From a virus, in the IMG/VR virus record IMGVR_UViG_3300007513_000007, positions 1 through 64,000 of that record: a stretch of 64,000 nt of DNA; one strand, written 5' to 3'. The position numbers and the translations under genes were made by a program. Shown here in pieces: positions 23,859 to 50,825 of the stretch (its first letter is position 1; each line of letters begins with the position of its first letter). The notes below the pieces were generated by a model. That model worked only from the letters and a program-made list of their open reading frames with translations. It did not search any database and was not told where the DNA came from.

Positions 23859-25802
23859 ATGACCTGTAAGACCGCAAAAGCTGCTGTCCAGCCAGTTCGT
23901 CAACGTACCCAGTACACCTGCATGGCTACGTCGATGATGATGTGTCTGCAAGCCCTTGGGCACGAGGTTGATGAAGACGAGGTGAACAAGGTGATGGGCG
24001 CACGGCCTATGAAGGGTGCCGCATGGGAACACGCTTTGGCCTGTGCCCAACACTATGGATGTAGGGCGACCCTTACTGTCCCTTCGACTGTGCAGCAACT
24101 AAAGGAATGGACAGATCAAGGAATCCCCGTGATGATCGCGTGGAACCCTGAAGGTAGGGAGTGGAGCCACGCAAGCGTGGTGTTTGACGTAGACGATGAT
24201 CTGAATGTTTACGTCGCAGACCCGAACATCCCGGACCCGGACGAAACAGTACGCATCGTCCCCAAGAAGGACTTCTACAACAAGTGGTACGAAAAGTGGC
24301 CTAACTATTTGGTCCGTCGTCCCGCGATGGCAGTCTCTCGGGAGATCACCACCGACGGAAAGCAGGTGATGGCTTCAGCCAAGAAGGTTGCCTCCCTGAA
24401 ACAGACCGCTCGAATCAACTGGCAACGGCTCTCCCGAGGCAAAGGTTGGAAGTACGTCACTCCTGAACTGCTGGTTCACGTCCTCCCCGTTGAATCATGG
24501 GATCACGTCCGGGACAGAGACATCCCCGACGTGCATGAGGTTGCTGATGCAGAACTCACTGCCGACGCAATCCCCCATCTGGTTGAGAGCTACAACAAGA
24601 TGGTCAAGGAGCACGCCAAGTGGGTGCGCCAAGGATGGTGGCCAAGACCTGTGCGAGTCGAGAAGTGGGAAGTGTGGGCTTACCACCGCCCCTCCAAAAA
24701 GGGATTCCGTGGTGTGTTGGATGACGAGAGAACCGCTCTGCGAAGCACCGAGAACGCTATCCCGAAGCTCCTGGAAAGGAAGAGGCCCTCTTGGCTCAAG
24801 CCTGACAATGACGGGCCAACGAGAGCCGCCAAGAGAACCACCGAGGTCCGAAAGAAGAAGGACAAGAACGCCCCGGTAAAAGTGAAGGTGGACCGGCTGC
24901 GTAACAATCCCGCTGCTGAAGCAGCAGGCGCACGGAAACCTACACGGGGACACCGAAGAAAAGAGAGAGGGCGCAACGTGGAACGAGGACATTCAAGAAA
25001 AGACAAGCACAAGGGAAGGAGGCAAGAGCGCCAATCGGCTGCTTCTCCGTCACGGGTGGCTCTGCGCCACGTCCACAGCCGCACCCTTGATTTGAGCGGC
25101 ATGGACATGGAGGATGCCCTCGATCTTGTCATGGAAAACGTAGGCATCCCCAGATCCGACTACAGTTGGAAAAGAGGCGAAATCAAACGCCGGGTGATGG
25201 GGGATTTGGCCGCTGATGGCAGTCAACAAGCCCTGATTCGAGGCGAGATTCTGTTCTCCCGTGGTGCCTTTGTTGAGGACCGGAACATCAAGGAGTTCCT
25301 AAATCAGTTCCCTCGGGGCGAGGCCGCCCTGAAGCACCGGTTTACCCAGAGCGTCTTGACGAACAGATCAGACCTCGGACGGGACATCAGAAAGAGAATC
25401 CAGCGCAGCCCCAAACAGTTCCTTGGAACACTTTTCGATGACTACCAGGAAGCCGAAGAATACGAACCCCTTGAAGTGACTGTGGCCCCTGCGGAGTTTA
25501 GTCGGCAGGTTCGCGTCGATGCTCGATGGGGAAAACTCATATCTCCCGCCACCGTCGAAGTGAACTTTTCCGCGAAGAAGCTGCCGCCAGTTGGCGAAGG
25601 TGTGTTCAGCATAATGAGCAACACCGAACTCAACCGTTGGATTGAGGGCTGGGCCAGCTACGCACCGGAGAACTTCTACATGGACGGTGAGACGGGTATG
25701 AATAGCAACCAACTGTTCCGGCACTACCGAGAGCAGTGGCGTGGCCTGTCACCCCGTAGACAAGCAGAGAAGTACAAGTCGCTCCAGCGGTATGTACGGT
25801 AG
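23859..25802 (+). CDS. multi-domain virion-tagged protein with an N-terminal C39-like cysteine peptidase
   Basis: QRTQYTC (Cys), WSHASVV (His), VADPN (Asp); linkers SAKKVASLKQTA and ASPSRVALRH. Confidence 0.7.
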   Translation: MTCKTAKAAVQPVRQRTQYTCMATSMMMCLQALGHEVDEDEVNKVMGARPMKGAAWEHALACAQHYGCRATLTVPSTVQQLKEWTDQGIPVMIAWNPEGREWSHASVVFDVDDDLNVYVADPNIPDPDETVRIVPKKDFYNKWYEKWPNYLVRRPAMAVSREITTDGKQVMASAKKVASLKQTARINWQRLSRGKGWKYVTPELLVHVLPVESWDHVRDRDIPDVHEVADAELTADAIPHLVESYNKMVKEHAKWVRQGWWPRPVRVEKWEVWAYHRPSKKGFRGVLDDERTALRSTENAIPKLLERKRPSWLKPDNDGPTRAAKRTTEVRKKKDKNAPVKVKVDRLRNNPAAEAAGARKPTRGHRRKERGRNVERGHSRKDKHKGRRQERQSAASPSRVALRHVHSRTLDLSGMDMEDALDLVMENVGIPRSDYSWKRGEIKRRVMGDLAADGSQQALIRGEILFSRGAFVEDRNIKEFLNQFPRGEAALKHRFTQSVLTNRSDLGRDIRKRIQRSPKQFLGTLFDDYQEAEEYEPLEVTVAPAEFSRQVRVDARWGKLISPATVEVNFSAKKLPPVGEGVFSIMSNTELNRWIEGWASYAPENFYMDGETGMNSNQLFRHYREQWRGLSPRRQAEKYKSLQRYVR

Positions 25803-25846
25803 AGACCTTATCCAAGACTTATTGCAGAACCCTCGGAGCACGACCC

Positions 25847-27007
25847 ATGTCTGACAAAACCCTTCTCCTCCCGTCTGAACGGGCAGCTATGGAACGGGCT
25901 GCTGGCCCTTACAACCCGCGCCCGCCGTGGCCTAAAACTCCGGGCGGCCAGGGAAAGCCGGGAACGAAGAACGTATACAACTTGCACAACGAGTATGGGT
26001 CGGGCGTCTCAAATGATCCGGCTGCTTACATGCGCCAGTGGCGTGAAAAATGGCAAGGAAACCATAAAGACCGGGCGAACTGCCCGGATGGATTCGGTGA
26101 AACAATGGATTGCTCCTCCCACGAAACAGGTAAGTCAAAGAAGGCCAGTGCTCCCGCAGGAATGTACGGCTACACCAAGAAGACCCAGCATGACGTTGAG
26201 GCGTCCATCCGCAAGGCCCAGCGCCGAGTGGCCAAGATTGCCAAGGCTCTCTGGACACGGGATTCCCGTTCTGCTGCGTTCCTGGCTACCCATGCGAAGC
26301 GTGCAAAGAGTGCTCCTGCCCGCCTTCTCGTAGCCGCTATGGCTGACATTGGCCCCAAGGTCGCCTCCGAAGAGGGAGTGGCTCGTGTGGCCGCCTACGG
26401 CCTCTACGGACACCCCGCGAAGACTGCCCGCCTTTCCCTGACCGCTTGCTCCGAGCTTCGGGAAGAAATGGGCCGCATCGCATATGATCTGCACAGCCGC
26501 CGCAGCATGAAGCACGCCAAGATCACGGGCTTCATGGATGCTCACACGAAGGCTGCGAAGTGCAGCTACTGCCGGATGCTCCTGTCCTCGTACCCAGACA
26601 GTCCTTCCGGCAAGACTGCGGAGTTCAACGCAGACGATATTGGAAAGACGGTTCCTGGCCCGCTGGTGAATGACCCGCCTGACTCGAAGATGGACGGGCA
26701 GTTCACACAAGCAGACAACTCTCAGCTTACGAATCTTGCCGAAGGCAAGGAAGTTGCTGTGAAGTCAGCGGATGAGAACACACCGGATCTTGGACCCGAG
26801 TACAACGTCGCCAAGCCCGGTATCGAAGAAGAGATCGGCGCAGAGGTCAAAGGACCCATCTACGAAGAGGACTCCTCTACGAGTGCTGACCTCAAAGGTC
26901 AGTTCACGCAGAAGGACCTCCACGAGTTGACGGACGAGGTTGAGAGCGGCAAGCAGGCGAGCGTGGACACCACCTCCGTGCGTAGCCTGCTGGAGTGGGT
27001 GGACTGA
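25847..27007 (+). CDS. probable head/scaffold-type protein
   Basis: Segments punctuated by KKASA, KVAS, KTAE, KQAS; duplicated GQFTQ acidic repeat. Confidence 0.55.
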   Translation: MSDKTLLLPSERAAMERAAGPYNPRPPWPKTPGGQGKPGTKNVYNLHNEYGSGVSNDPAAYMRQWREKWQGNHKDRANCPDGFGETMDCSSHETGKSKKASAPAGMYGYTKKTQHDVEASIRKAQRRVAKIAKALWTRDSRSAAFLATHAKRAKSAPARLLVAAMADIGPKVASEEGVARVAAYGLYGHPAKTARLSLTACSELREEMGRIAYDLHSRRSMKHAKITGFMDAHTKAAKCSYCRMLLSSYPDSPSGKTAEFNADDIGKTVPGPLVNDPPDSKMDGQFTQADNSQLTNLAEGKEVAVKSADENTPDLGPEYNVAKPGIEEEIGAEVKGPIYEEDSSTSADLKGQFTQKDLHELTDEVESGKQASVDTTSVRSLLEWVD

Positions 27008-27008
27008 G

Positions 27009-27470
27009 ATGCGTTTGCCGGACACACGAAAATCCGAGGGGTGGTCTGACTCCGACTGGGTGGATGCCGAAAAGGCTCAGGATGAGTTGTGGGATCAAGC
27101 GCAGGAGCACATCCAAGGCTTCTACGACAAGATCAAAGAAGACATCCGCTTCGCAGAGGACGACCTCAAGCAGATCCGTGATGGCTTCGCCTGGGCTGAG
27201 ACGCGGGGCGACATCGGCAGGCTTCGGAAGCGTTTTGAGGGTTCCGTGGGCAGCAAGGCCCTCTCCAAGAAGGAGTGGGAATGGCTCGACGAGATGCTTT
27301 CTGTTCAGTCGAGGAAACTCCCCGATTCAATCTTCCGCATGAACGCCTCAGAGACAGATAAAGCCATGAGCATCACCGCATATGAGCGCGGTGCGCTCAT
27401 CAGGCTTGCTTCCACCCTCCCTGTAGGGGACGAGAAGCGTAGGGCCATCCTTTCCGGTCTGGTGCGGTAA
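27009..27470 (+). CDS. tagged protein (C-terminal LIRLAST tag)
   Basis: Ends ERGALIRLASTLPVGDEKRRAILSGLVR; ATG 1 nt after the upstream stop. Confidence 0.7.
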   Translation: MRLPDTRKSEGWSDSDWVDAEKAQDELWDQAQEHIQGFYDKIKEDIRFAEDDLKQIRDGFAWAETRGDIGRLRKRFEGSVGSKALSKKEWEWLDEMLSVQSRKLPDSIFRMNASETDKAMSITAYERGALIRLASTLPVGDEKRRAILSGLVR

Positions 27471-27530
27471 AGGCTTCAGCAACTTCAAGGTTGCCTCTCA
27501 AGCCATCCCTTTTTGAGACTGGGCTTCTGA

Positions 27531-27836
27531 CTAAGACTGGTCCGGGCGTACATTCTCTCTGCCCTCAAAGGGGCGCGTGAAGGTGTGAGCCTTCAAAGCC
27601 TCAAAGCCGTTGTCCATCAAGATGGGCACAGGGGTAAGGCTGTCCTTGGTCTTGACGAACCACTGGCACCGCCATTCCACGTCATTGTGAAGGAACTTGA
27701 ACACCATGAGGTGTGTCCCCTCTGGATCGAGTTGATTTGCGAACTCGTCCACTGGACCCTGGTTACGGTTTTCGTACCGAGAGTCAGCCATGAGGGCCAG
27801 GAAGCCCTCTGTTGTTGCCATCACCATTTCAGCCAT
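27531..27836 (-). CDS. hypothetical protein
   Basis: 101-aa ORF with a GAGGTGAG RBS. Confidence 0.65.
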   Translation of the reverse strand: MAEMVMATTEGFLALMADSRYENRNQGPVDEFANQLDPEGTHLMVFKFLHNDVEWRCQWFVKTKDSLTPVPILMDNGFEALKAHTFTRPFEGRENVRPDQS

Positions 27837-27853
27837 CGCTCACCTCTTGTAAA

Positions 27854-28189
27854 TCAAACACCCCACCCCATCGAACGGGCTTCGTCGCCACACTCGGGAC
27901 AGTGGTGAGTGTTGTTCTTGCAGACAGCATCACTGCCATCACGGAACTGCATCCAGTTGCAGTGTTGCCCAGCGGTCTTGACCTGCTGGATATGCTTGCA
28001 GTGCTTCCCGTTCCCGAACTTGTACGCGGAACAGGTACACGAATAGTCGTACTGAACGCTGTGCTGGTTCCTGTGACCGCTTTTGTTCCACGACACCGTG
28101 TAAGTGTTCCCCGTAGAACCTGGGACAGTTGTGGACCAGTTCTCGGACGTAACGCAGTGCCAGAAGTATTCAGTCGTCAGATCGGGCAT
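27854..28189 (-). CDS. SWIM zinc-finger protein
   Basis: YSCTCSAYKFGNGKHCKHI plus C-terminal CPEC; class-A promoter upstream. Confidence 0.8.
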   Translation of the reverse strand: MPDLTTEYFWHCVTSENWSTTVPGSTGNTYTVSWNKSGHRNQHSVQYDYSCTCSAYKFGNGKHCKHIQQVKTAGQHCNWMQFRDGSDAVCKNNTHHCPECGDEARSMGWGV

Positions 28190-28208
28190 TGGGGGTTCTC
28201 TCCTCCCC

Positions 28209-28242
28209 CTCTCTACGGCGAGGCGTGATTCCTGGAACCCCC
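28209..28242 (-). promoter_or_regulatory. class-A phage promoter
   Basis: GGGGGTTCC-16 nt-CGTAGAGAG on the minus strand. Confidence 0.75.
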
Positions 28243-28467
28243 TGCAACAACTCCGGTCTGCTTTCGAGAAGGGAAGCCGTTTTTGTTGTTGTAACGTGCA
28301 TAAATCCCCGAAAAACCTACACTTTTAGCTAAATCCCCGGTTGATTCCAGGCCAAATCAGGGTTGGGTCTTGCTTCCAGGAGCTTGAATCTTGGCGGGTC
28401 CAAGAGTTTTTATAGATGCCTTATCTGTCGGTAGTGGTGCTATTGGGGAGGGGAGAAGGAGAGAATC

Positions 28468-28714
28468 ATGGCTTCCCCTTGTCCCGTCCGTGTAGCGACT
28501 GCCTACAAATGGGCAGCACGCTCCTGCTTGGACCACAGCCATCACCGACAAGCAAGGACGGGTGGTGTTTACTGGCTCAAGCACACCCCGCGCAAACCCC
28601 GGACAGGTAGTGATTGCGCTGCTGATGGATATGCCCCGCTTCGTAGACTCTAAACGCTGGGACGAGGCGACCTACATGCGTGAAGAACGAGTCCGAGACT
28701 GGGCTTCCGACTAA
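28468..28714 (+). pseudogene. apparently frameshifted small tagged gene
   Basis: Starts MASPCPVRVATAYK (tag); a protein-like continuation (WTTAITDKQGRVVFTG...RVRDWASD) lies in the +1 frame, which has no upstream start of its own. Confidence 0.35.
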
Positions 28715-28720
28715 CCCGCT

Positions 28721-29149
28721 CTACTTGAGTCCCAGCTTCGCCATGCGATGAGCAGTCGTAGAGGCATCCCAATCGAACGAGAAGCCACGGCTGTCTGTCG
28801 CGACGTTCGGGGAAACATCACAGTCGGACCCCATCCAGGTAGCGATCTGCTTGATCTGTTCCTGTGAAATGGTGGGAACACGATCCTCCACAACCTTCAT
28901 ATGGGCCGGGTTACAGCAAACCTTGGTCATGCAGGTCTGCACAAGGGAGCTATCAGAGGGGACTGTCCCCCGCGAAATAACGTACATAGCCTTGTGTGCG
29001 GCGAGTGTTTCGCCTTTGCCGTTGGGAGAGTATTCCCCATAGCCTTCAGGCCCCAGCTTTCCTTCCCAGTTCCAACAGCCACTCTCATCGTGACCAATCG
29101 AACCCAAGATGGCTTTCGCGTGTTCCAGGCCCAAATCTGCATACCTCAT
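28721..29149 (-). CDS. degenerate HNH endonuclease-like protein
   Basis: CWNWEG...GYGEY...AHKAMY...LVQTC...CCNPAHM; the catalytic His position reads Q. Confidence 0.7.
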   Translation of the reverse strand: MRYADLGLEHAKAILGSIGHDESGCWNWEGKLGPEGYGEYSPNGKGETLAAHKAMYVISRGTVPSDSSLVQTCMTKVCCNPAHMKVVEDRVPTISQEQIKQIATWMGSDCDVSPNVATDSRGFSFDWDASTTAHRMAKLGLK

Positions 29150-29486
29150 ACTTCACCTCGCTTTGATGTTCTACCTATACCCCTATATCGACAAGATAAT
29201 CCCCCTCTTTAGGGAGTCACCACAAAAAACGCGGAGATAATCGAGCTTCTCGGGGTTCCGAAGAGCGATTTTCCCCCGTAAAGAGGACAGGGAGGCCGTA
29301 TAGCCGGAAGACCCATGATCATCAAGACCAACTGCCAAAAGTGCGGAAAGAAGAAAGCCATCAAGAACAAGGTGGTGTTCATTCCGGGCGACTGCATCAT
29401 CACCACCGTAGGGAAGGGATGCCATAAGTGCGGCTGGAAGCCCGGTGATTGATTCTCTATAGGGGGTGAGCCATAGGAGTACGATC

Positions 29487-30467
29487 ATGTCCAAGCCCTC
29501 CCCTGCGAATGTAGTCAAAGCCTACGGAGCCATAGGTCCCGATGGGGACTGGTACGAAGATGACGGCTACGACCGCTATTCCGATGCGGACTACGGCTAC
29601 GACGCGCCACCATGCGAAGAACAAGATTTCTTCCATGATCTGGAGAAGATGACGGCCCAAACCGCCGAAAGGTTCTTCAGACAAAAGGTGATTCCAGAAC
29701 TGAAGAGTATGCGCTGGAGCGTCAAAGCAAGTTTTGACTACGGGCTTGGCGAAGACATGGTTTCTGACCGGGAAGGGTGGGTCTACTATGTTGGAGGCGC
29801 AGAGCTAAAAGGCAAGGCAGGGCAAAAGCTCCTCCTCCCCCGCAACAAAGCCATTGTTCTTGATCGGAACGTGGACTTCGACATCGGCTTCTGGGTTGCT
29901 ATGGGGGACGGCGACGAAGAGATAGCGGTGGGGACCGGCAAGTACACGGGGGATGGCTGGAATGAACCCCGCCAAGAACTTGAAGCCTACATAGACATTG
30001 AGTGTCCTGACCCAAAAGACATCATCGGGATCGCGTTCGCTTGGGAAGGCGAAGAGCCTCGCAGATGGTTCAAGCCCTCCCAAGTAAACAAGATGCTTGA
30101 ACTGTTCTCCGTCACCTTTCCGAAAGAGGTGAAGATCAGGTCCAAGATCAAGAAGAGGGCAGCAGACGAGACCGGAGGGTCCTTTCGGGCGGCCAGTGCT
30201 GGTCGGGTTGCATCGGCTTACCGGATCGCCCGATCCCAAAGGACTGGCACGGAGCACGCCACCGAGGAAGCCCGCAAGAAGCACCTCAAGGAACACCCGA
30301 ACGCTGATCCAAGCGACCACACGGTAGAGAAGAAAGAGAAGCCCGAGAAGAAGCTGGACCTCGGAAAGTCCCTGGAGAAAAGCAAGGGCGTGAAGAAAAA
30401 GGTCGATGAAAAGCTCGATGAACTCTTCGATTTCGCCGGGGCCAGTCAGTACACCAGCAAGGGCTGA
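29487..30467 (+). CDS. tagged multi-domain virion protein
   Basis: N-terminal SKPSPANVVKAY; internal ASAGRVASAYRIA; basic C-terminal HATEEARKKHLKEHPNADPSDH segment. Confidence 0.65.
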   Translation: MSKPSPANVVKAYGAIGPDGDWYEDDGYDRYSDADYGYDAPPCEEQDFFHDLEKMTAQTAERFFRQKVIPELKSMRWSVKASFDYGLGEDMVSDREGWVYYVGGAELKGKAGQKLLLPRNKAIVLDRNVDFDIGFWVAMGDGDEEIAVGTGKYTGDGWNEPRQELEAYIDIECPDPKDIIGIAFAWEGEEPRRWFKPSQVNKMLELFSVTFPKEVKIRSKIKKRAADETGGSFRAASAGRVASAYRIARSQRTGTEHATEEARKKHLKEHPNADPSDHTVEKKEKPEKKLDLGKSLEKSKGVKKKVDEKLDELFDFAGASQYTSKG

Positions 30468-30468
30468 T

Positions 30469-31058: not shown

Positions 31059-31060
31059 CT

Positions 31061-31516
31061 TCAACTCCTGAATCCCTTGGGTCCTGCTCGCCAACCGCTC
31101 CAGGTAAGGCGATAGCCTTGTTGGCCTGTTCGGGGCGACGTAACGGGTTCGACCTTGATTCGAGCCTTCTCGGCTTCCTCGGATCGGCGCAACCATGCCT
31201 CACTCAAGCCATACCTTTCGCTTTCAGCGAGGTAGCCTGCTTCCTCGTGGACGTATGCCCAAAGCTGGTCCTGGACGGCCTTTGGCGTCAAAGCAGGGCC
31301 GATGAGGTCATGGTTGTCCTTGAGGAAGACCTTCCCCTGGCTGTTCAACAGCTTGGCGATGTAGAACCCCAAGTCCCGAAGCACACCTTTAGGGCTGCCT
31401 TTTCCTCGACCGAGCTTATCCACGTCGATGAAATCCGTGCCTGCGACCCGAGTCCAATCATAGGACGATAGGACCGCATACGCCGCAGCAACACGACTTG
31501 GGGAAGCAACGGGCAT
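31061..31516 (-). CDS. tagged protein
   Basis: N-terminal MPVASPSRVAAAY. Confidence 0.7.
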   Translation of the reverse strand: MPVASPSRVAAAYAVLSSYDWTRVAGTDFIDVDKLGRGKGSPKGVLRDLGFYIAKLLNSQGKVFLKDNHDLIGPALTPKAVQDQLWAYVHEEAGYLAESERYGLSEAWLRRSEEAEKARIKVEPVTSPRTGQQGYRLTWSGWRAGPKGFRS

Positions 31517-32299
31517 TCATCCCCCGCAGAGGGAAAGACGCTTGTTGAGGTAGCGAAGCATGGTTCCAATCTCGCGAACCGTCTTGGACTTCTCGGGGAT
31601 GATCCCCAACGCAAGGTCCTGACGTGCGCCCTGCATACGACCGAGAGGCTTACGCATCATCTTCGTAAGGGCTTGTGACAGGTCGGAACGCTCCATGCGA
31701 AGCAGCGTGCCCTGTGCATCTTCCAGGGCACTCAAGAGGCCCTGTGCGTCCTCACGGGAGGATGCGCCCATCGCCTGTCCCAGACTGTCCATCATGTAGC
31801 GGAGTTCTGGCACGCAGGCAGCGGCCTCCTCGCCCTTCCAAAGACCACCGACATCACCCAGACCGACCGGATACTCGCCCATAGGCAGCTTCTTTCCGTC
31901 CGGGGTGCGGTGCTTGTTACCGAAAGCGTCGATGTAGCCGGAACGCAAGGACTTCATGTACCGACTCTGCATCTCGCGCTGGGCTTCGGGGAGCGAGTCC
32001 TTGTAGATGATCTTCTGCCGCTTCTGGTCCACGGAGCCTTTGTCTGTAAGACGGCCCCACTGACGAAGCAGCTTGTAGCCACCGCCCTGTTCCGGGGTGA
32101 TCAACTGCTCATAGAACTTGGAACTGTTCTTCGCTCGATCCAGGAACCAGACCATCGTGGCCATGCCGTCACGCACGGAGTTCTTATTCACGCCTGGGGT
32201 AAGAGCGCCACGACGCGCTTCCTTCAGTAGTGGAAGCAGGTGGGCACGGAGTTCCGGCTTCTCGTAAGCCAGCTTGATGCAAGCGATGCGAAGGTTCAT
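31517..32299 (-). CDS. tagged WGR-domain protein
   Basis: N-terminal RIACIKLAYEKPELRAHLLPLLKEA; NSSKFYEQLI...LLRQWGRL is a WGR domain signature. Confidence 0.7.
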   Translation of the reverse strand: MNLRIACIKLAYEKPELRAHLLPLLKEARRGALTPGVNKNSVRDGMATMVWFLDRAKNSSKFYEQLITPEQGGGYKLLRQWGRLTDKGSVDQKRQKIIYKDSLPEAQREMQSRYMKSLRSGYIDAFGNKHRTPDGKKLPMGEYPVGLGDVGGLWKGEEAAACVPELRYMMDSLGQAMGASSREDAQGLLSALEDAQGTLLRMERSDLSQALTKMMRKPLGRMQGARQDLALGIIPEKSKTVREIGTMLRYLNKRLSLCGG

Positions 32300-32354: not shown

Positions 32355-32732
32355 TTACCCGTCCACGTTTACAAAGGCGTAGACACGAGCACCGCTGGAA
32401 TCAGGATCCAGGGCGACGACGAGGGAACCGGTGAGCGTTCTTTCGTAGTCCTCGGCGTTGGGGTCATCGTTCTCCATCGTGAGGTTAGAGAACATGCGGC
32501 CACCCATCGCCTTCGTCACCTTTCGATCAATCTCCAGAGATCCGGGACGAGCCATCGGGTAGTGCTTCAAGAACATCTTTTCGATGTCCCGAGGTTTGAG
32601 GTTGACTTCAAACTTCGAGAAGATCGGAACCTTGTCCACCGCCCCTTGCTTCAGGATCGGGAGGAGGTCCTCCCTAAGCTCAGGGCGGGCATGAGCCAGC
32701 TTGATGAGCTTTTCGCGTAGGGGATCTGACAT
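32355..32732 (-). CDS. tagged protein
   Basis: N-terminal LREKLIKLAHARPELREDLLPILKQGA. Confidence 0.7.
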   Translation of the reverse strand: MSDPLREKLIKLAHARPELREDLLPILKQGAVDKVPIFSKFEVNLKPRDIEKMFLKHYPMARPGSLEIDRKVTKAMGGRMFSNLTMENDDPNAEDYERTLTGSLVVALDPDSSGARVYAFVNVDG

Positions 32733-32849: not shown

Positions 32850-34028
32850 ATGGAAAACCCCTCCTCTAATCGCGTAGCGACTGCCTTTTTACGGAAGGCC
32901 CGTCACAGCATGAAGATCAGGGGCATGAGTCCCATCGACATGCTGGGCCGGATACGAGACCTCTCCGATTTGATCAAAGGTGGTGCTGACCATCTGTGGG
33001 AGGGGCGCAACACCCCTGATCCCACGCCTGCCCAGGTGAAGGCTTGGAGACAAGAGCGTAAAGCTCTCCTGGAGTTGTTTGGTCAGTTCGAGTTGGGTGC
33101 AGTGCATCTGCATGACATCAAGGACTGGAAGATGTACCAGAAGATGAAGGTGGCCTATGGCGGTTATCCGGGCGGCCCCGGTCAGTACGGGGACGCAACC
33201 GAGGACCCAAGCATCTACCATGAAGAGGAGGTGGACCCCTGCGAGGAGAACCCCGAGTACATCGGCATGTCACTGGATGATGTAGTTGGGTGTGCCCCCG
33301 ATGCGGTCGATGATTGGATGGAGGCTGCCGAAGGCGTCATGGCAGGCTTGAAAAGGCTCGGGTTCAAGGTGCGCGAGGGCAAGGATTGGCACGAGGACGG
33401 TCAACTCAGGATGAGGATTTTCATCCAGGGGCCGCTCGGAAAAGCCGAGATCGACATCACAGGGAACATCGACCCCAACGGACAACTCAAGAGGGGCTGG
33501 GGTCTTTACGCTGGGATCGTGAGGGGTGCCGACTGGTGGGACCTCAAGCATCTCAAGCACGGTGAGATCGAGATGGACGGCGGCAACGTCAGGCGGTTCG
33601 TCAAGAAGGTGCTGGATGTCTGGGCTGACGGCGGCATGAACCGCACCCGGAGGGCTTCTTCTAAGGCCAGTGCCGAGAGGGTCGCTGCCGCTTTCTTGAA
33701 GCAAGGATCATGGGAGATTCACAAGGAGTGGCAGGCTGCGTATCGTTCAGGGATGGGCGACATGCAGAAAAGATGGACCGCCCTACTCAATAAAGCAGGG
33801 CGACAGTTCAAGAAGGACGACTGGAAGCTGGAGCCTCAAAGCTGGCTTGGCCACTACAACCACGGCTCAGATGGCGCTCGCATGGACGGGATGTTGTTTT
33901 TTGAGGATCTCCGCAACGAGGCACGAGGCACACGCGAGACCGAAGACTGGCTGGAAGCGAACCTTGGCCTCAGCTACAACCTGACGGGTCGCGGCTACGG
34001 CAAGTGGTCCTTGAGCCTTGAAGAATAA
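32850..34028 (+). CDS. tagged multi-domain protein
   Basis: N-terminal PSSNRVATAFLRKA and internal ASAERVAAAFLKQG. Confidence 0.7.
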   Translation: MENPSSNRVATAFLRKARHSMKIRGMSPIDMLGRIRDLSDLIKGGADHLWEGRNTPDPTPAQVKAWRQERKALLELFGQFELGAVHLHDIKDWKMYQKMKVAYGGYPGGPGQYGDATEDPSIYHEEEVDPCEENPEYIGMSLDDVVGCAPDAVDDWMEAAEGVMAGLKRLGFKVREGKDWHEDGQLRMRIFIQGPLGKAEIDITGNIDPNGQLKRGWGLYAGIVRGADWWDLKHLKHGEIEMDGGNVRRFVKKVLDVWADGGMNRTRRASSKASAERVAAAFLKQGSWEIHKEWQAAYRSGMGDMQKRWTALLNKAGRQFKKDDWKLEPQSWLGHYNHGSDGARMDGMLFFEDLRNEARGTRETEDWLEANLGLSYNLTGRGYGKWSLSLEE

Positions 34029-34641: not shown

Positions 34642-35070
34642 TTATCTCCAGAGTTGAACCGTAGGGGGCTTGCCTTCGCCTCCCCAGGAAACCGACACAG
34701 CGATTCGGATGTAGCCTTTCCATGCTCGAATCTCCATTTCGTTGCCGACCATCCCTTCGTACCGATTCATTCCACCACGGCCCCATCCTTCCTTCTTCAG
34801 CTTCTTGATCTTGGCCAAGGCGCGGGCCATAGCATCCCACTCCTCCTTCACCCTGACCTCATGCGTGACGACCCTGGTCATGGACTCAAGCGTGTACTCG
34901 TGCCTGCCCGTTTGGCTGTCTACGCCCTGGTAGATGAAAGACCGTGTCCAGCCCTTTGCGGTCTTTTTCAAACCTGAAAGGATAGTCCTACGCTCCTCCG
35001 AACCTTTGGGGAGAGTAGAAGCGAGTCGAATGAGCTTCTTACGATCAGATCCGGTAAGGGTTTTAGACAT
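34642..35070 (-). CDS. tagged protein
   Basis: MSKTLTGSDRKKLIRLASTLPKGSEERRTILSGLKKTA followed by a unique domain. Confidence 0.75.
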   Translation of the reverse strand: MSKTLTGSDRKKLIRLASTLPKGSEERRTILSGLKKTAKGWTRSFIYQGVDSQTGRHEYTLESMTRVVTHEVRVKEEWDAMARALAKIKKLKKEGWGRGGMNRYEGMVGNEMEIRAWKGYIRIAVSVSWGGEGKPPTVQLWR

Positions 35071-35142: not shown

Positions 35143-35433
35143 TTACTTACCAAACGCACCGCGAATGTCTCGGAAAGCGAGTTCCACAGCAGCTTCAGCC
35201 AGACGGTAAGCGTCTGGGCCGTAGACCCCATGCTTCTGCAAAGCAGGGTACATCACGTCGTACCATGCTTTCTTGGGTGACAGTCGCGCAGTCTTGTCGG
35301 TTTTTGGCTGAACCACACCCGAAGCCTTAGACAATCCAGCGAGGATAGCCTTACGCTCGGGGGAACCCTTCTCCATCGTGGAGGCGAGTCGAATGAGGGT
35401 TTTTCGATCTGAAGCGGTGAGGGTTTTAGACAT
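35143..35433 (-). CDS. tagged protein (paralogous head)
   Basis: MSKTLTASDRKTLIRLASTMEKGSPERKAILAGLSKA followed by a different short domain. Confidence 0.75.
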   Translation of the reverse strand: MSKTLTASDRKTLIRLASTMEKGSPERKAILAGLSKASGVVQPKTDKTARLSPKKAWYDVMYPALQKHGVYGPDAYRLAEAAVELAFRDIRGAFGK

Positions 35434-43905: not shown

Positions 43906-43917
43906 TTTATTTCGAGA

Positions 43918-43952
43918 GGGGGGTTCCCCACAGTTCCTCCCTCCGTATTGAG
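43918..43952 (+). promoter_or_regulatory. class-A phage promoter
   Basis: GGGGGGTTCC-16 nt-CGTATTGAG. Confidence 0.75.
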
Positions 43953-44013
43953 ACCATCACCCCATCACCCCAGCGCCTCAACCCATTCCGGGTGCAGGCC
44001 AAAGGAGTTCCGA

Positions 44014-44820: not shown

Positions 44821-44919
44821 ACCTCAACCTCTAACCAACTGAACCCCCGTCCCTGTGGCGGGGGTTCTTGCGTCTCGTGTCCGGGTAGTAGAGGGAGGGC
44901 CTCTTGCTGGAGGTGTGCC

Positions 44920-45246
44920 ATCCCTATCTGGCCCAACACAGAACCCGGAACACAACAGAGCACCATTCTCGACTGGCTCTATGAGAACGGTCCAGACTTC
45001 ACCCCCACCACCGCCTCCATCGCTGATCACCTTGGGTTCGAGCGCAAGTACCGAACCAAGCGTGGCAAGGGTGGGTCAGTGCAGTGGCAACTGATCGCGG
45101 ATCCTGACGTGAACCTGGAGGCCCACGAGGAGCATCTCCTCGCCCACAAGATCCAGGAGGTACGGATGCGACGACTCGAACAACGCATCAAGGTTCTCGA
45201 AGACTTGATCCTGGAGATGGGGTCCCGCCTCGAAGACGCTCCATAG
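44920..45246 (+). CDS. hypothetical protein with an apparent ATC start
   Basis: 109-codon frame (IPIWPNTEPG...LEQRIKVLEDLILEMGSRLEDAP) missed by the ORF track; GGAGG lies 6 nt before ATC. Confidence 0.45.
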   Translation: MPIWPNTEPGTQQSTILDWLYENGPDFTPTTASIADHLGFERKYRTKRGKGGSVQWQLIADPDVNLEAHEEHLLAHKIQEVRMRRLEQRIKVLEDLILEMGSRLEDAP

Positions 45247-45256
45247 GGGACAACCC

Positions 45257-45478
45257 TTATTCAGAGTCGCTGGAGTCGCGTTTCTTGGTGAGCAGTCCGA
45301 GCGCAGCACGAGCAATCATGACAGTTCCAGCAAGCTGGTGCGCCGCCTCGCCGCTTTGGATGACGCCCTTGGCTTGGTCCCACCACACCGAGAGTTGAGC
45401 ACAAGCTCCAAAGGCACGAGCCACCTTGACAGGGTCATGGCCGCAGGCGGGGCAAGGTCGATGGGATCGGTCAGTCAT
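45257..45478 (-). CDS. small hypothetical protein
   Basis: 73 aa with CPAC and a purine-rich RBS. Confidence 0.5.
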   Translation of the reverse strand: MTDRSHRPCPACGHDPVKVARAFGACAQLSVWWDQAKGVIQSGEAAHQLAGTVMIARAALGLLTKKRDSSDSE

Positions 45479-45511
45479 TCTCTTCCCTCCTCCCTACGAA
45501 GACAAAAGGCT

Positions 45512-45648
45512 CACCACCGGCAGTGGTCTGCAACACCACCGGCAGTGGTTTCCTGAAGCAACGCGGGAGTCACACCCACCTGTCCCGAGACGACACGAAG
45601 CGACAAGAGACGACAAGAGACGACAAGAGACGACACGAGGTGTCCCGA
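45512..45648. repeat. iteron-like direct repeats
   Basis: CACCACCGGCAGTGGT x2 (22-bp period); seven 10-bp units at 45579-45648 (GACGACAAGA core, flanked by TGTCCCGA). Confidence 0.85.
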
Positions 45649-45832
45649 CGGGATGGACAAGAACTGGTTTGTCCGTCCCGTCGGCAGCCTGAATCAGTTT
45701 CACTGTGCCCATGCAGCCGAGCGTCACACGAGAACTCGCCAGCGATTTTGCTGGCGAACCCCGTTCGGTATGATTTCAACACCAGCTTGATGGCTGCTAC
45801 CCATAATCGCCGTTTTCAGCGTTCTACGAGAG

Positions 45833-46501
45833 GTGGTTCATATCGAAACACCTCTCACGCAACATGGACAACCCCCCGTGAAACTCCCCGCAAGCAACAC
45901 CCCAAGCAACACGGAGCCAGTAAGCCTCGCGGTGTCCCTACTGAACCAACCCTTCCTTCAGTACGAGAGGAAGCCTGCTACACAGAAAGCTCTCTCTGGA
46001 CCGCCTACGGACCCAACGTGGTGGATTCCATACAGGGACAGGGCACTCCTACATACATGCCTATGGACAGGGTGGGGTATGAACCCTCTCCTCCAGGTAT
46101 CCCTACAGCAAGCAAAGGACGCCCTCGAAGACTCTCCACTTGCTTCAAGCCTCATCCCCGAACCTCTATGGAACGACTGCTGGGAATCTCTCCAGCTATG
46201 GGAACAGGCAGCCAACCTCCTGGTATGCACACCCAAGCATCGCTACTGTGGAAATCACCTGCTATTCATCTCCCGAAAGCACACAGACCTTTCCAGGTAT
46301 CCCGGAGGACGTGTCTCTTGCAGGGAGTCTCTCTGGCGCACCTTCCACCGAATCAGGGAGGGACTCACCATCACGGAGATCCAGGAAGTGAGTGCTTCTC
46401 TCTCTGAAGTGTCTGGTATCAGTCTTCCCTCTCCCCCTCCAAGCAGACCTCGGGTATTCACTCCGCGATCTATGGCCCTGTGGCTCTCCTCGCAGAAGTA
46501 G
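45833..46501 (+). CDS. hypothetical protein (start uncertain)
   Basis: The C-terminal ~150 aa look protein-like; the stop abuts the next promoter. Confidence 0.4.
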   Translation: MVHIETPLTQHGQPPVKLPASNTPSNTEPVSLAVSLLNQPFLQYERKPATQKALSGPPTDPTWWIPYRDRALLHTCLWTGWGMNPLLQVSLQQAKDALEDSPLASSLIPEPLWNDCWESLQLWEQAANLLVCTPKHRYCGNHLLFISRKHTDLSRYPGGRVSCRESLWRTFHRIREGLTITEIQEVSASLSEVSGISLPSPPPSRPRVFTPRSMALWLSSQK

Positions 46502-46535
46502 GGGGGTTCTTACTGCTCTCCAAAAACGTAGAGAG
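46501..46535 (+). promoter_or_regulatory. class-A phage promoter
   Basis: GGGGGGTTCT-16 nt-CGTAGAGAG. Confidence 0.7.
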
Positions 46536-46559
46536 CAAGAAGACAAGGAGTTGATCCCC

Positions 46560-47021
46560 ATGCCCTCTGACCTCTACGACCTCTTTGGAACCAAGACCGA
46601 GGGACCTGCGGGTGCCCCTTACACCAAAGGGTCCATCACCTCTATGGAAGCTGCTGAAGCCATCGCTGACGTTGCTGGTAGGCTACGCAGGCAGGTGTAC
46701 CAGTACATCGTGTCCTGTGGCGCTTCAGGCACTACGGATGATGCTGCTGAAGTAGCCCTCGACATGAAGCACACCACTTACACTGCCCGTAGGGGTGAAC
46801 TGGTCAAGCGGGGACTCGTTGCTGACTCTGGGCACAAGGCAAAGACCCGTTCTGGCCGTAGGGCTACCATCTGGGTTGCCGTGAACCCCAAGAACGCTGC
46901 GAACCTCAAGGAAGTGTCGGACCTCAACAAGATCCGCACCAAGCTGAAGGGCAAGGTCAGCAAGATGTCCGAGGAACAGTGCGAAAAGGTCCTCAACGCC
47001 ATTGAAGGCTGGGGGCTGTAG
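46560..47021 (+). CDS. winged-helix DNA-binding protein
   Basis: LRRQVYQYI..GTTDDAAEVAL...YTARRGELVKRGLVADSG..TRSGRRATIW; AAGGAG RBS. Confidence 0.75.
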   Translation: MPSDLYDLFGTKTEGPAGAPYTKGSITSMEAAEAIADVAGRLRRQVYQYIVSCGASGTTDDAAEVALDMKHTTYTARRGELVKRGLVADSGHKAKTRSGRRATIWVAVNPKNAANLKEVSDLNKIRTKLKGKVSKMSEEQCEKVLNAIEGWGL

Positions 47022-47026
47022 CGCAT

Positions 47027-47251
47027 ATGTCTGATTGGGAACACCAACACACGATGGGGGAGATCCAAGAACCCTTGAAGGTCGAACTCGATGAGAACGG
47101 TACGACCCTCTTTGACATCAACCTGGGCAGCTATGTCCTCTTTGATGGCGAGGGTCGGTGTCTCCTCATCCAGAAGGACTTGCCCTTCCCCCCGGAGTAC
47201 TTGCCTGACGAGTACACCATCCTCCAGGTCGTGGAGAAGGTCGAGAAGTAG
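47027..47251 (+). CDS. hypothetical protein
   Basis: 74 aa, co-transcribed with the upstream gene. Confidence 0.6.
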   Translation: MSDWEHQHTMGEIQEPLKVELDENGTTLFDINLGSYVLFDGEGRCLLIQKDLPFPPEYLPDEYTILQVVEKVEK

Positions 47252-47254
47252 GGC

Positions 47255-47716
47255 TTACCCCAGGATCTGCAAAGGCCCCGGCCCCACATCCAGAACCGCA
47301 TCGCACTCCCAGACATACTCAAAGCCTGAGTCCGTCAGCCTGAACCACACCGTGGTGTTGTCCGCTGTACGCCTGCCACGAAAGAGCATGTTCTCAGCCG
47401 GGGGAGGGAACTCTTCGTCTGTGTGGTACTGGGAGGTATGAAGCCCGTCGATTCCGGGCATCTCGTGCCCTACGCTTGGCTCCCACCCGCGTCCCCGGCC
47501 CAACTCGTACTGCTCTCGAACGTGTGCGTTGCTGGAAACATTGCTGACGAGGTGCCATGTCAGGAACCTTTCCGGGCCTTCCCACCTGCTGATGCACCCC
47601 TCGAAGCCTTCCTCAAGCTGGATGACGCCGATGGAGTAGCCTGACGGGTGGGGATTTACGGTTTGGGCTTCTTCGCGGCTTAGCGAGTTGTAGCCATCGT
47701 CACTGTGTAGGCGCAT
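47255..47716 (-). CDS. hypothetical protein
   Basis: 153 aa, class-A promoter upstream. Confidence 0.65.
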   Translation of the reverse strand: MRLHSDDGYNSLSREEAQTVNPHPSGYSIGVIQLEEGFEGCISRWEGPERFLTWHLVSNVSSNAHVREQYELGRGRGWEPSVGHEMPGIDGLHTSQYHTDEEFPPPAENMLFRGRRTADNTTVWFRLTDSGFEYVWECDAVLDVGPGPLQILG

Positions 47717-47736
47717 GGTGCTCCCCTCCTTCTACC

Positions 47737-47810
47737 CTCCTTACGGGGGAATCCGAATCGTGGAACCTACGAGAGTGGGGGTTCCCCCTGGCTTTTCGAG
47801 CCGTAGGGAA
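47737..47810. promoter_or_regulatory. back-to-back class-A promoters
   Basis: Minus copy 47737-47767 (GGTTCC-16-CGTAAGGAG); plus copy 47777-47810 (GGGGGTTCC-16-CGTAGGGAA). Confidence 0.7.
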
Positions 47811-47813
47811 CTC

Positions 47814-47990
47814 ATGGACACTTACAAATCCCGCATCATCAAATGCCCTGGCCGCAGATGCTTCTGCTTTGGCCCCGGCTACCCCTGCGACCGTGAATCC
47901 TCAAGCAAACGCAAGGCTGCCCGTCTTGCCCGTCGTCGCCTCAAAACCGACGACCGCAAAACCTTCCGACGCCACACCCTTCCTCGTTAG
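47814..47990 (+). CDS. small basic Cys-containing protein
   Basis: MDTYKSRIIKCPGRRCFC...KRKAARLARRRLK; 58 aa. Confidence 0.5.
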   Translation: MDTYKSRIIKCPGRRCFCFGPGYPCDRESSSKRKAARLARRRLKTDDRKTFRRHTLPR

Positions 47991-48027
47991 GGTTCCTATC
48001 CGCACCTACGGGTATAGGAGAACCCTC

Positions 48028-48483
48028 ATGAAGACACCCTCACCTATCCCTTCGCTCCCAACCGACAGGAAGGGGTTGATTCGCATGGCTTCGGAACTCC
48101 CCCTCGGTGACCGGAAGCGTAGAGCTATCCTGTCTGGGTTGAAGGCTGGCGCTGGGAAGACCGCCAAGATTGACGACGAGGATCTAAACAAGGTTCTCAT
48201 TGTGATGAAGGCTCATGTAAGCAGACGCCCTGACAAGGGTTGGCGGATGATGGCCGCGCCCGAAGACGCGGCTTCTGGGCCAGCCGATTCTGGCATTGTC
48301 GCTGACTGGCTGGGCTGGGGTGGCGGTGCAGCTACAACTGCTTTGAGGGTGCTTCAGAGACAAGGGCTTGTGAACTCTGTAAAGGGCCGCACACGCAAGA
48401 ATCGGTGGTATTTGACCCCCAAGGGTTTGCAAGCGGCGGTGAGGGCGAAGACCACAACGAAACTGGCCCAGAAGAAGCCCTGA
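48028..48483 (+). CDS. tagged winged-helix protein
   Basis: DRKGLIRMASELPLGDRKRRAILSGLKAGAGKTA, then ATTALRVLQRQGLVNSVKG..NRWYLTPKG. Confidence 0.7.
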   Translation: MKTPSPIPSLPTDRKGLIRMASELPLGDRKRRAILSGLKAGAGKTAKIDDEDLNKVLIVMKAHVSRRPDKGWRMMAAPEDAASGPADSGIVADWLGWGGGAATTALRVLQRQGLVNSVKGRTRKNRWYLTPKGLQAAVRAKTTTKLAQKKP

Positions 48484-48490
48484 TTAGAAG

Positions 48491-49582
48491 CTACCCCCAG
48501 ATTTCGTTGAGTGCTTTTTCGTGTTCTGTGGGCAGTATTCCCAGGGCACTCAAGGCCACTGCTTCAGCGAAGTGTTCTTCATCGCTCTTTGAAGAGTACG
48601 GCGTCGGGAAGTTCTTGAGCGCCTTGTTCTGCTTCAGCAGAAACTTGTGGATGTCCCGTACTGGGTGACTTTGCAGGCCGTGGTTTGGGGTGTCGAAGAA
48701 GTATTGCCCGTGTTGGATCATCTTCACCACAGGGCGTTCCTTCATGCCTCGGATCTTCAGGGGGATCTCGTCCCCGACTCCGGGCATGTCGAAATCCGGG
48801 TCCTTGTTCCCGACGTTCCAGTGGTGGTGGTGCCAAGTACGCTTGGCACCCTTGTCAGCAAACTTCTTCCAGTATCGGTGGGCGAGTTCGTGGACCAGGG
48901 CGTGGACCTCATCCATCCCCGTGGCCTTACCCCGGCGAAGGTACATGCTGTCATCCCCCGGCATGTACCAAGCGGCATGGTGCGCTTGGCTGAGTCGGGA
49001 CACGATATGAAGGTCGCCGTATAGGGTCTTGGCGAAGCCTGGAACCGGGTTCTTCTTGGCGAGCTTCTCTGCTCTCTGGATAGCTTTCTTCAGTGCCTCA
49101 AGCTCTGCACCCTCGGCGTTCACCGTGTTGTGGATCCTGAACCTACCCAGCTTGAACAACTCGTCCGTGCCTTCTTGCTTCTCGGGCCAGTTGTAGGCTC
49201 CTCTAATCAGAAGGTCGATCCGCTTTTCGTTCTTGGCCCACCACTTGTAGACATCCTTGGGCATCCGACGGCTGTTGTTGAACAGCCGGTACGCCATTTC
49301 CATGCCCTTTGAATCACGGCGGGGAACACTCCTGGAGGACAGCAAGCCATCCGAAATCCGTGAGCCTTTGTTGATCAAAGCAACCCAGGGACGGTTGGCC
49401 CAGACCCGGACGGTGCGGCTATCACCTGAAAGACCACGATCCTTCCCGTCCTGGACGGCCTTGATGAAATCCTGGCGTGCGATCTCGAACGCATCCAGGT
49501 TGTTCATGATGTCCTGTTCCGTTCCTGCCGCCTGCTTCAAGGAGAAGCGCAGAGCTACTCTGGCCGAATCAGCTTTCATCAT
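48491..49582 (-). CDS. tagged zincin-like metallopeptidase
   Basis: N-terminal DSARVALRFSLKQAA; LVHELAHRYW and PYSSKSDEEHFAEAV motifs. Confidence 0.7.
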   Translation of the reverse strand: MMKADSARVALRFSLKQAAGTEQDIMNNLDAFEIARQDFIKAVQDGKDRGLSGDSRTVRVWANRPWVALINKGSRISDGLLSSRSVPRRDSKGMEMAYRLFNNSRRMPKDVYKWWAKNEKRIDLLIRGAYNWPEKQEGTDELFKLGRFRIHNTVNAEGAELEALKKAIQRAEKLAKKNPVPGFAKTLYGDLHIVSRLSQAHHAAWYMPGDDSMYLRRGKATGMDEVHALVHELAHRYWKKFADKGAKRTWHHHHWNVGNKDPDFDMPGVGDEIPLKIRGMKERPVVKMIQHGQYFFDTPNHGLQSHPVRDIHKFLLKQNKALKNFPTPYSSKSDEEHFAEAVALSALGILPTEHEKALNEIWG

Positions 49583-50208
49583 GGGTCCAGCAACGTGACT
49601 ATGCACCTTCCCTCGAAGGTGGTTCCGATGGGGAAGTTGACTCCATCATTCGGGTTTTGGATGAAGAACACGAACTGGGCAGGCGTAGGCCCAGAGGCCG
49701 CGACGTATGTAACGGAGCAACCCGCGTCGATAGGGCCGATCCCCGTGGAGGCTGAAGCGCCTCCGATTTTGTCGATGTTCCCAGACTGGAGGGTTTCATC
49801 GGTGGCGAAGACGTACTCTCCGATTTCACTGTTGCTGGTGCCTTGGGCCTTCATGTGGACCGTGATTCGACCGCCTACGAAGTCTGAAGCAGTGTAGACG
49901 AGCACCTCGATGTTTTCTTGGACCGCTGTGGAGGTCGTATGGGTGAACTGCTCGCAGAACACCCTGCCGCAGGAGTACACCGAAGCCAACTGATGGACTT
50001 CTGCCCACTGGCGTTCCGTGCCTGGGGTCCCGTCCCCGCTGTGCCCCAGGTTCCTGGTGAGGTTCGCGTCTGGAGTGAGGTCCGATGCGATTGATGCTGT
50101 GACCTCAAGGGTGTCTGTTGCCTCATCGTTCCCGATGGTCATGCTTCCAGGAACATCCAGGTGGTCGATGTCGATCCCGATAGCGTCAGTGATCAATACT
50201 CTGGGCAT
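49579..50208 (-). CDS. probable virion (fibre-like) protein
   Basis: SDLTPDANLTRNLG....W.EVH fibre-type motif with a beta-rich C-terminus; in a late-type operon. Confidence 0.45.
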   Translation of the reverse strand: MPRVLITDAIGIDIDHLDVPGSMTIGNDEATDTLEVTASIASDLTPDANLTRNLGHSGDGTPGTERQWAEVHQLASVYSCGRVFCEQFTHTTSTAVQENIEVLVYTASDFVGGRITVHMKAQGTSNSEIGEYVFATDETLQSGNIDKIGGASASTGIGPIDAGCSVTYVAASGPTPAQFVFFIQNPNDGVNFPIGTTFEGRCIVTLLDP

Positions 50209-50825
50209 CAGGACCTCATAGACCAGCGTAGAGCCACGCTGGCAGCATTAGGGGTGGAAGCCCAGCGCCGAGTCGGATGTCTGCGCCGCCCCCGTGGCTT
50301 TATGGGATTGCGCGGGGGCTTCCTCCGACCGGATTTATCCGTCCAGGAACTCCCGGAGTTGGCGAAGTTGTCTCGCATGTATTTCTCGGCGGCTTCTTCC
50401 GACATGAATGGCCCGTAAGAGGACATGTCCCCTTCGATCTGGTAGCCATCCTCGTCTTCTTGGTAGTCCTCATTATCGACGTACCACTTGCCGTCTGACG
50501 CCTTGTAGAACTCCCGCTCGGTGTTGGTGCTTCCCTTTTTCTTTTTCTTGATCTTGCCCTTCCAGTAGGACTTCGCATCGGAGCGGGCATCAGGGGATTC
50601 TTTCTTGTTCTTCTGACGCCAACCGGGCATCTGCCAGTCAGCAAGGCCACCGCAAAAGGCACCAGGGTTGCTGATGTTGTCGGTCATCTTCTCGATGCAG
50701 TCCCAGACCTTGTGTTCAGGCGTGCCTTTACCCAGCGTCTTCCAGAACTTCTTGACGGACTTATCCGTCCATCCCGGAGGGAGGTTCTTCCATTTCTTGG
50801 CTACGCGGGCAGCGGATGGCTTCAT
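50208..50825 (-). CDS. tagged protein
   Basis: MKPSAARVAKKWK...CIEKM..ISNPGAFC; second segment after KKKKG. Confidence 0.65.
   Translation of the reverse strand: MKPSAARVAKKWKNLPPGWTDKSVKKFWKTLGKGTPEHKVWDCIEKMTDNISNPGAFCGGLADWQMPGWRQKNKKESPDARSDAKSYWKGKIKKKKKGSTNTEREFYKASDGKWYVDNEDYQEDEDGYQIEGDMSSYGPFMSEEAAEKYMRDNFANSGSSWTDKSGRRKPPRNPIKPRGRRRHPTRRWASTPNAASVALRWSMRS

Follow-up and report, generated by a model that had tools for sequence, protein, structure and literature searches.

A widespread pair of portable peptide tags on unrelated proteins of a phage-G-like huge phage

Short terminal helices act as transferable addresses that bring diverse cargo into a protein shell in encapsulins (the cargo-loading peptides), whose shells share the HK97 fold, and in bacterial microcompartments (the encapsulation peptides). 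Short N-terminal peptides common to unrelated proteins of one phage are represented by the capsid-targeting sequence (CTS) of T4 and by the N-terminal targeting propeptides on head proteins of SPN3US/phiKZ-like phages; the precedent payloads of the T4 CTS (IPI-III and Alt) include enzymes that are injected with the DNA (PMC7411985). Other terms of comparison are the capsid-binding helix-turn-helix segments of scaffolding proteins (the C-terminus of P22 gp8, phi29 gp7 and residues 286-326 of Pa193 gp24), the one of Pa193 gp24 sitting on the inner face of the capsid (PMC11456595), and the polyvalent proteins of phages and conjugative elements, a repertoire with metallopeptidases, papain-like peptidases and ADP-ribosyltransferases for which packaging and delivery are predicted (Iyer et al. 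2017, PMC5512222). In this work we analyzed a stretch of 64,000 nucleotides (hereinafter the window), corresponding to positions 1 to 64,000 of the IMG/VR virus record IMGVR_UViG_3300007513_000007, in which short recurring peptides (hereinafter tags) are attached to otherwise unrelated proteins, the payloads. These portable peptides form a pair that is real, very widespread and so far uncharacterised.

The window is the start of a single virus contig of 180,576 bp (57.6% GC, CheckV completeness of about 40%), which is a fragment of a phage-G-like huge phage. The large terminase (16717-18627) and the portal (19898-21607) are both encoded in the window, and replication and baseplate genes are present on the 180-kb fragment. 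On the basis of portal identity, the nearest records are LR745208.1 (hereinafter LR745208), an uncultured huge phage of 485 kb (65%), Tunturiibacter phage Tunturi_5 (36%) and Bacillus phage G (26%); a closer relative is a 297-kb IMG/VR contig, G002, whose portal is 79% identical.

According to the original prediction, three short tags recur in the window (Table 1, where proteins are named by the start of their genes). Their recurrence stood, their number did not: Tags I and II are not separate but belong to a single family, in the alignment of which R, I, A, R, L and L are invariant, and an intermediate form (LRSKLIRLAHENPALRPHLLPLLKEA) occurs in LR745208. Tags I (pattern LIR[LM]AS..G...R[RK].IL.GL) and II are subtypes of one arginine-rich helix-loop-helix of about 30 residues, and Tag III is a separate helix of about 12 residues, [RK]xASAxRVAxR[YFW], whose extended consensus in G002 is [RK]-x-[AP]-S-[AP]-x-R-V-A-x-R-[YFW]. 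Both translations and pattern searches bore out that Tag I is N-terminal in 35070(-), 35433(-) and 48028(+) and C-terminal in 27009(+), and that Tag II is N-terminal in 32299(-) and 32732(-). The list of Tag III carriers held for 23859, 29487, 31516, 32850 (twice), 49582 and 50825 and failed for the open reading frame (ORF) 28468, which is probably not a gene. Among the 184 gene calls of this contig, LI[RK][LM]A was observed five times (0.19 expected), [SAT]xxRVAxx[FYWH] nine times (0.48 expected) and RVAxx[FYWH] within the first 20 residues five times (0.11 expected); the tags are real and far above chance. Indeed, the similarity found by BLASTP among tagged proteins is confined to the tags. 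The joint Tag I/II profile finds exactly six copies in the whole contig, the same six as in the window, and further Tag III sites lie beyond it in 75466 (a WLM metalloprotease by Pfam), 78491, 82188 and 89220 (twice). A pattern scan could not be based on the mixed Tag I/II alignment A1, owing to its variability. The tag is not covered by any Pfam family, and a literature search on the tag motifs returned nothing relevant. As for the payload labels proposed originally, the WGR domain of 32299 was recovered by Pfam, the zincin call for 49582 goes back solely to its HExxH motif, and Pfam assigns Peptidase_C39_2 to protein 23859.

The tags resemble the T4 CTS and the SPN3US/phiKZ-like propeptides in being short, mostly N-terminal peptides common to unrelated proteins of one phage. 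They differ from them in the lack of sequence similarity, in being longer (the 30-residue hairpin) or of another type (Tag III), and in occurring also at C-termini, internally and in multiple copies, on up to 14% of the proteome; moreover, their packaging and cleavage are putative. With respect to the peptides of encapsulins and microcompartments, the sequence is another one, the context is that of a phage, the cargo families are many more and internal copies exist. The payload repertoire is similar to that of the polyvalent proteins, but here most domains are small proteins in their own right that bear individual tags; no comparable tag emerged from a term search of the paper on polyvalent proteins (PMC5512222).

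The spread of the tags was analyzed with the Tag I/II profile, which gave 2,738 matches at E<=1e-3, 307 of them at E<=1e-10, in 1.84 billion proteins, each representing a cluster, from public metagenomes. The best 150 matches, a list biased toward multi-copy proteins, carry one to four copies each, at N-terminal, C-terminal and internal positions; in 55 IMG/VR loci, 100 of the 121 copies are N-terminal, nine C-terminal and 12 internal. Once the tags had been masked, 103 tagged proteins fell into 81 BLAST payload clusters. The hidden Markov model scan of this and related genomes, suggested originally as a check, yielded more copies in the relatives than the six found here: 11 in LR745208, 23 on 18 proteins in G002 and 11 in G003; none was found in the cultured relatives phage G and Tunturi_5. 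G002 also harbors 26 exact Tag III matches, about 30 times the composition expectation as extrapolated from the statistics of this contig. Proteins with either tag number 16 of 184 here, 41 of 300 for G002 and 22 of 663 for LR745208, the tagged share in related genomes being 3-14%, and each genome has its own tag dialect. Payload types among the wider matches include an ADP-ribosyltransferase, a pentapeptide-repeat protein and a Fusello_VP2-like family (three matches).

The 11 copies of LR745208 share 80% peptide identity and use the same codon at just 46% of the identical residues; since the peptides are conserved and the codons have diverged, the tag is maintained by selection at the peptide level, rather than the copies stemming from recent DNA copying. 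Some spread by cassette duplication is visible as well, because genes 35070 and 35433 are alike at the DNA level in the upstream element, the ribosome-binding site and the first ~38 codons.

The comparison of homologous payloads revealed that tags are exchanged and lost. Protein 29487 is collinear with P0012 (E 5e-12), and the two positions occupied by Tag II in P0012 are taken in 29487 by forms of Tag III: the N-terminal one is degenerate, whereas the one at the junction preceding the LKEHPNADPxxHTV module is complete. The payload of 50825 (PxGWTxxSxKxFW) follows Tag III here and in G002 and Tag II in P0085 (E 5e-15), and the C-terminal GDILxxxWGYDQTN domain is preceded by Tag III in L088 but by Tag II in both P0036 and P0012. 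Homologues of 78491 and 89220 start immediately past the tag, the LR745208 orthologue of 23859 is a stand-alone C39-like peptidase of 162 amino acids (aa) without extension or tag, and both LR745208 homologues of 49582 retain an N-terminal Tag III variant. Because homologous payloads differ in their tags, the two kinds behave as equivalent, exchangeable cassettes. The idea of modular tags on unrelated proteins is thus strongly supported by the 2,738 clusters, by at least 81 payload groups and by the swaps and losses between homologues.

Further shuffled mini-modules occur in tagged proteins: besides LKEHPNADPxxHTV and the GDILxxxWGYDQTN domain, these are GCEKLPEGPMRDNCEKK, KV+NPDTGN.VK.KSL and GYIAFYK. 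They were seen at 30270-30330 of the window (protein 29487) and in P0003, P0012, P0015, P0018 and P0036; these proteins are mosaics of short conserved pieces with K/E/D-rich linkers in between. On the TARA scaffold that carries P0036 (L003), a four-tag protein of 1097 residues adjoins four N6/N4 methyltransferase genes and a homologue of Acb5 (anti-CBASS), a counter-defence neighbourhood.

Table 1. Tag copies and related features of the window (positions refer to the 64,000-nucleotide stretch; aa, amino acids)
Feature	Coordinates	Strand	Carrier and remarks
Tag I	34945..35058	-	N-terminus of 142-aa protein 34642-35070; 76 bits vs profile A1
Tag I	35308..35421	-	N-terminus of 96-aa protein 35143-35433
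Tag I	48052..48165	+	N-terminus of 151-aa protein 48028-48483
Tag I	27372..27467	+	C-terminus of 153-aa protein 27009-27470, last gene of the terminase-portal block
Tag II subtype	32210..32299	-	N-terminus of WGR-domain protein 31517-32299 (WGR 2.3e-7)
Tag II subtype	32631..32729	-	N-terminus of 125-aa protein 32355-32732
Tag III, internal	25038..25088	+	Residue ~396 of 647-aa protein 23859-25802, C39-like peptidase N-terminus
Degenerate Tag III (PSPANVVKAY)	29496..29528	+	N-terminus of protein 29487-30467
Tag III, internal	30189..30242	+	Residue 237 of protein 29487-30467; followed by LKEHPNADPxxHTV mini-module
Tag III	31457..31510	-	N-terminus of 151-aa protein 31061-31516
Tag III	32856..32906	+	N-terminus of protein 32850-34028 (start 32850)
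Tag III, second, internal	33663..33713	+	Protein 32850-34028
Tag III	49526..49576	-	N-terminus of HExxH protein 48491-49582
Tag III	50769..50822	-	N-terminus of protein 50208-50825
Degenerate Tag III (ASVALRW)	50211..50249	-	C-terminus of protein 50208-50825; weak, 3.3 bits
Large protein	13119..15404	+	Heads the terminase-portal block; Tag III-like variant ARKVAVRFL near C-terminal third
ORF	28468..28653	+	Listed as tagged in the original prediction; coding score -9.5; skipped by the gene caller

An AlphaFold2 model of the 12-row tag alignment is a confident hairpin (pLDDT 84.6, pTM 0.58) with helices at 7-19 and 25-43. Its top structural match among 48,161 PDB representatives is 9b40 chain G, residues 286-325 of Pa193 gp24 (Z 5.7, root-mean-square deviation 2.1 A over 40 residues), and fusions of the phi29 scaffolding protein gp7 appear at ranks 5 and 35. 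The predicted hairpin of about 40 residues with a charged surface is like the scaffolding helix-turn-helix of P22 gp8, phi29 gp7 and Pa193 gp24; it differs from that of Pa193 gp24, whose turn is acidic, in being basic, and from scaffolding hairpins in general in being attached to many non-scaffold proteins, the binding to the major capsid protein (MCP) or scaffold being putative. We regard the Pa193 gp24 match, one of 19 effectively tied chains at Z>=5, as a lead, not as proof. A search of the ESM Atlas with the tag gave generic helical matches alone, and a complex prediction with the MCP, scaffold and Tag I peptide of G002 (ipSAE 0.01, controls not run) speaks neither for nor against such an interaction.

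On the whole, these data are best read as pointing to peptides that serve as addresses or docking sites and share one phage-encoded partner, the existence of which we infer. According to this model, each tag would dock its payload onto the common partner, working mostly from the N-terminus and sometimes from the C-terminus or a domain junction of dozens of unrelated proteins, throughout a widespread clade of phage-G-like huge phages. The destination might be within the prohead during its assembly, at the scaffold core or at the inner surface of the capsid, by analogy with the T4 CTS and with the scaffolding hairpins, and the payloads (C39-like and WLM/zincin peptidases, the WGR protein and many proteins of unknown function) would be packaged together with the DNA and delivered with it. 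Among the possible destinations the prohead interior comes first, and we propose it tentatively, at somewhat less than even confidence. If so, the scaffold would be favored over the near-invariant MCP as the partner, because the tag dialects differ where scaffolds are ~40% and MCPs ~84% identical.

The position of several tagged genes fits a link with the head. In LR745208 the maturation protease (phrog_18299, 1.9e-10) is followed, in this order, by an acidic scaffold-like protein, a Tag II protein of 134 residues, a decoration protein and the MCP (phrog_2522, 2e-47); in L087-L089 two genes come after the MCP, the first with Tag I at both ends and the second with an N-terminal Tag III. A Tag I gene lies directly after the portal of G002, whose portal-protease interval encodes two proteins that begin with Tag III or a leader resembling it, and 23859 and 27009 lie within the terminase-portal block of the window. 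By analogy, the payload types (peptidases, an ADP-ribosyltransferase, a pentapeptide-repeat protein) also resemble proteins known to be packaged or injected, which might favor the capsid.

A number of observations weigh against a destination in the capsid. No gene for an MCP, a scaffold or a maturation protease is found on the 180-kb fragment, and in G003 no Tag I/II gene lies between MCP and portal, so that the adjacency to the head module is not universal; indeed, most tagged genes are scattered among small non-structural ones. A promoter-like motif, GGGGGTTCC-N17-CCGTAGAG, stands upstream of the tagged genes 29487 and 48028 and of the 50825 operon, whereas none of this fragment's head and tail genes was found to be preceded by its strict form. 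Tags sit on 9-14% of the proteins in G000 and G002, exceeding any known packaged set, and internal and multiple copies fit poorly with a simple N-terminal propeptide. Moreover, the Pa193 gp24 match is tied with many generic helical hairpins, 19 chains reaching Z>=5, and hhalign comparisons of the tags with the C-terminal helix of the protease or with a scaffold segment were not significant (P about 0.12-0.13). The capsid-cargo loading system originally proposed is plausible but putative: the hairpin fold, the head-module neighbours and the payload types speak in its favor, and the scattered genes, the promoter-like motif and the very large tagged share against it.

It had also been suggested that the tags are removed by cleavage at K-x-A. 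This idea is unsupported: the frequency of K.A is 1.03-1.08 times the expectation in three proteomes, counts on which it was set aside as a cleavage motif, and the GL-x-K-x-A stretch lies inside the predicted helix 2. Past Tag III, an Ala at +6 or +8 occurs in just 11-13 of 36 cases, with no strong K-x-A. Upstream of the tags, [KR]xAS is 2.3-fold enriched in G002, an enrichment that may simply represent a helix N-cap.

Among the other explanations, the one that survives best, rather unlikely in our opinion but deserving attention, is that the tags dock payloads to a hub outside the capsid, for example through tag-tag helical bundles, with multi-tag K/E-rich proteins gathering single-tag clients in an intracellular assembly or factory. 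The many matches with two to four tags separated by low-complexity K/E/D-rich linkers would be expected in this case, as would the two copies present in five of the 18 Tag I proteins of G002, and the scattered tagged genes share their promoter-like motif with small non-structural genes; the genome-specific dialects fit co-evolution with any phage-encoded partner. A homotypic pairing of hairpins is difficult to reconcile with Tag III, which consists of one short helix and yet takes the hairpin's place at identical positions, and the presence of tagged genes within the head modules of three lineages weighs against the hub as such.

It is less probable that payloads are tethered to DNA or RNA by the hairpin acting as a small HeH/SAP-like module that binds nucleic acids through its conserved arginines. 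The arginines conserved on a two-helix motif, the tandem copies in charged proteins and the payloads that act on nucleic acids (WGR, WLM and the Fusello_VP2-like family in three matches) are in agreement with it, but eight multi-tag proteins gave no SAP, HeH or Rho_N match in Pfam at E<=1 (short motifs being easily missed), a 12-residue Tag III helix substitutes for the hairpin at homologous positions, and lineage-specific dialects are unexpected for the binding of a backbone.

Even fainter is the case for leader peptides that, in the style of the double-glycine leaders of bacteriocins, would be cut by phage peptidases (the C39-like 23859 and the zincins) for activation or export instead of packaging. 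The C39-like peptidase is conserved in G000 and LR745208 and the tags are mostly N-terminal; against this, alignments A1 and A5 show no conserved GG, GA or GS at the junction between tag and payload, Pfam finds Peptidase_C39_2 alone and no ABC-transporter domain in protein 23859, and C-terminal and internal tags exist too. Finally, that the shared segments have no function and merely reflect common ancestry or recombination between genes with the same 5' cassette, as the DNA-level likeness of 35070 and 35433 might suggest, is hardly tenable in the face of a peptide conserved over diverged synonymous sites, found in 2,738 clusters with at least 81 payload families and kept at N-terminal, C-terminal and internal positions.

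As for the promoter-like motif, its strong form, GGGGGTTCC-N17-CCGTA[GTA]AG, ends about 20-40 nt 5' of the starts of ~35 mostly small genes, such as 37852(-), 39153(-), 39809(+), 40321(+), 41727(+), 43192(+), 46503(+) and 59728(+), and two copies (43192 and 51681) face stretches without an ORF. A weaker variant, GGT.GGTTCCCTAT, precedes 35070, 35433, 48028, 50825, 32732 and 19013. G002 has a promoter-like motif of its own, GGGTTCAACTC-N-TCCGTATAG, a looser version of which is absent from both its head module and its tagged genes.

Tag-like segments of two head proteins, the protease and the scaffold, were discarded as evidence. The C-terminal helix of the protease (SxAElRVVVRVGTLLSrWES in 120 homologues; TLIRLAS in LR745208) resembles a tag by eye, but the best hhalign match falls elsewhere (P 0.12), and the resemblance of the scaffold segments CIR[LI]A[ST]AMLG and of the KKARALRAKALRMLRLAD repeats is not significant. 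In addition, protease and scaffold have an LS.[LW]WES motif in common near their C-termini (L001:26304-29005; L088:5137-7888; G002 19609-22431), and the scaffold a K[KR]AS site about 35-45 residues before its end; the former may be a shared capsid-binding peptide and the latter a cleavage site. In the head module of LR745208, a protein encoded between head genes (402114-402947) has, by eye, a GIY-YIG homing endonuclease-like N-terminus, and two paralogous small proteins (401416 and 403540) border this stretch of the module.

Other features of the window concern the terminase-portal block. An internal piece of the large protein 13119-15404 and the payload of P0011, a Tag I protein, share 85% identity. 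Next to the portal, gene 21794-22891 encodes a protein with a weak Dps/ferritin-like N-terminus (DUF5856, phrog_3636 DNA-binding protein), whose C-terminal part is common to an LR745208 protein bearing a Tag III-like motif. In one IMG/VR relative, the terminase (L047:5845-8634, 930 aa) and the portal (L047:9511-12837, 1109 aa) align to the window proteins in two pieces; the inserts, of ~290 and ~520 residues, respectively, are probably inteins or homing elements. A search for related loci with the protein of gene 25847 gave no matches, and sequence searches of the PDB with proteins 25847 and 169061 gave no meaningful match.

Since the function of most genes of huge phages is not known, a tag marking a functional class, be it packaged cargo or proteins that gather at one hub, would allow hundreds of uncharacterised proteins from thousands of metagenomic phages to be sorted at once and would give a clue to the partner they share. 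How such phages acquire new cargo can be seen in the exchange of tags between homologous payloads. If the tags are capsid addresses, foreign proteins could be brought into large HK97-type capsids by means of a natural and portable handle. In its most far-reaching and more doubtful form, the capsid proposal would imply that a widespread, possibly globally distributed phage clade uses a swappable address code of two tags by which each genome has dozens of its proteins loaded into the capsid and then injected, the cargo perhaps consisting of proteases, an ADP-ribosyltransferase, DNA-mimic-like and nucleic-acid-binding proteins and amounting to as much as ~14% of the proteome. If this were true, it would be the largest virion-delivered effector arsenal known, the members of which would be predictable from sequence alone.

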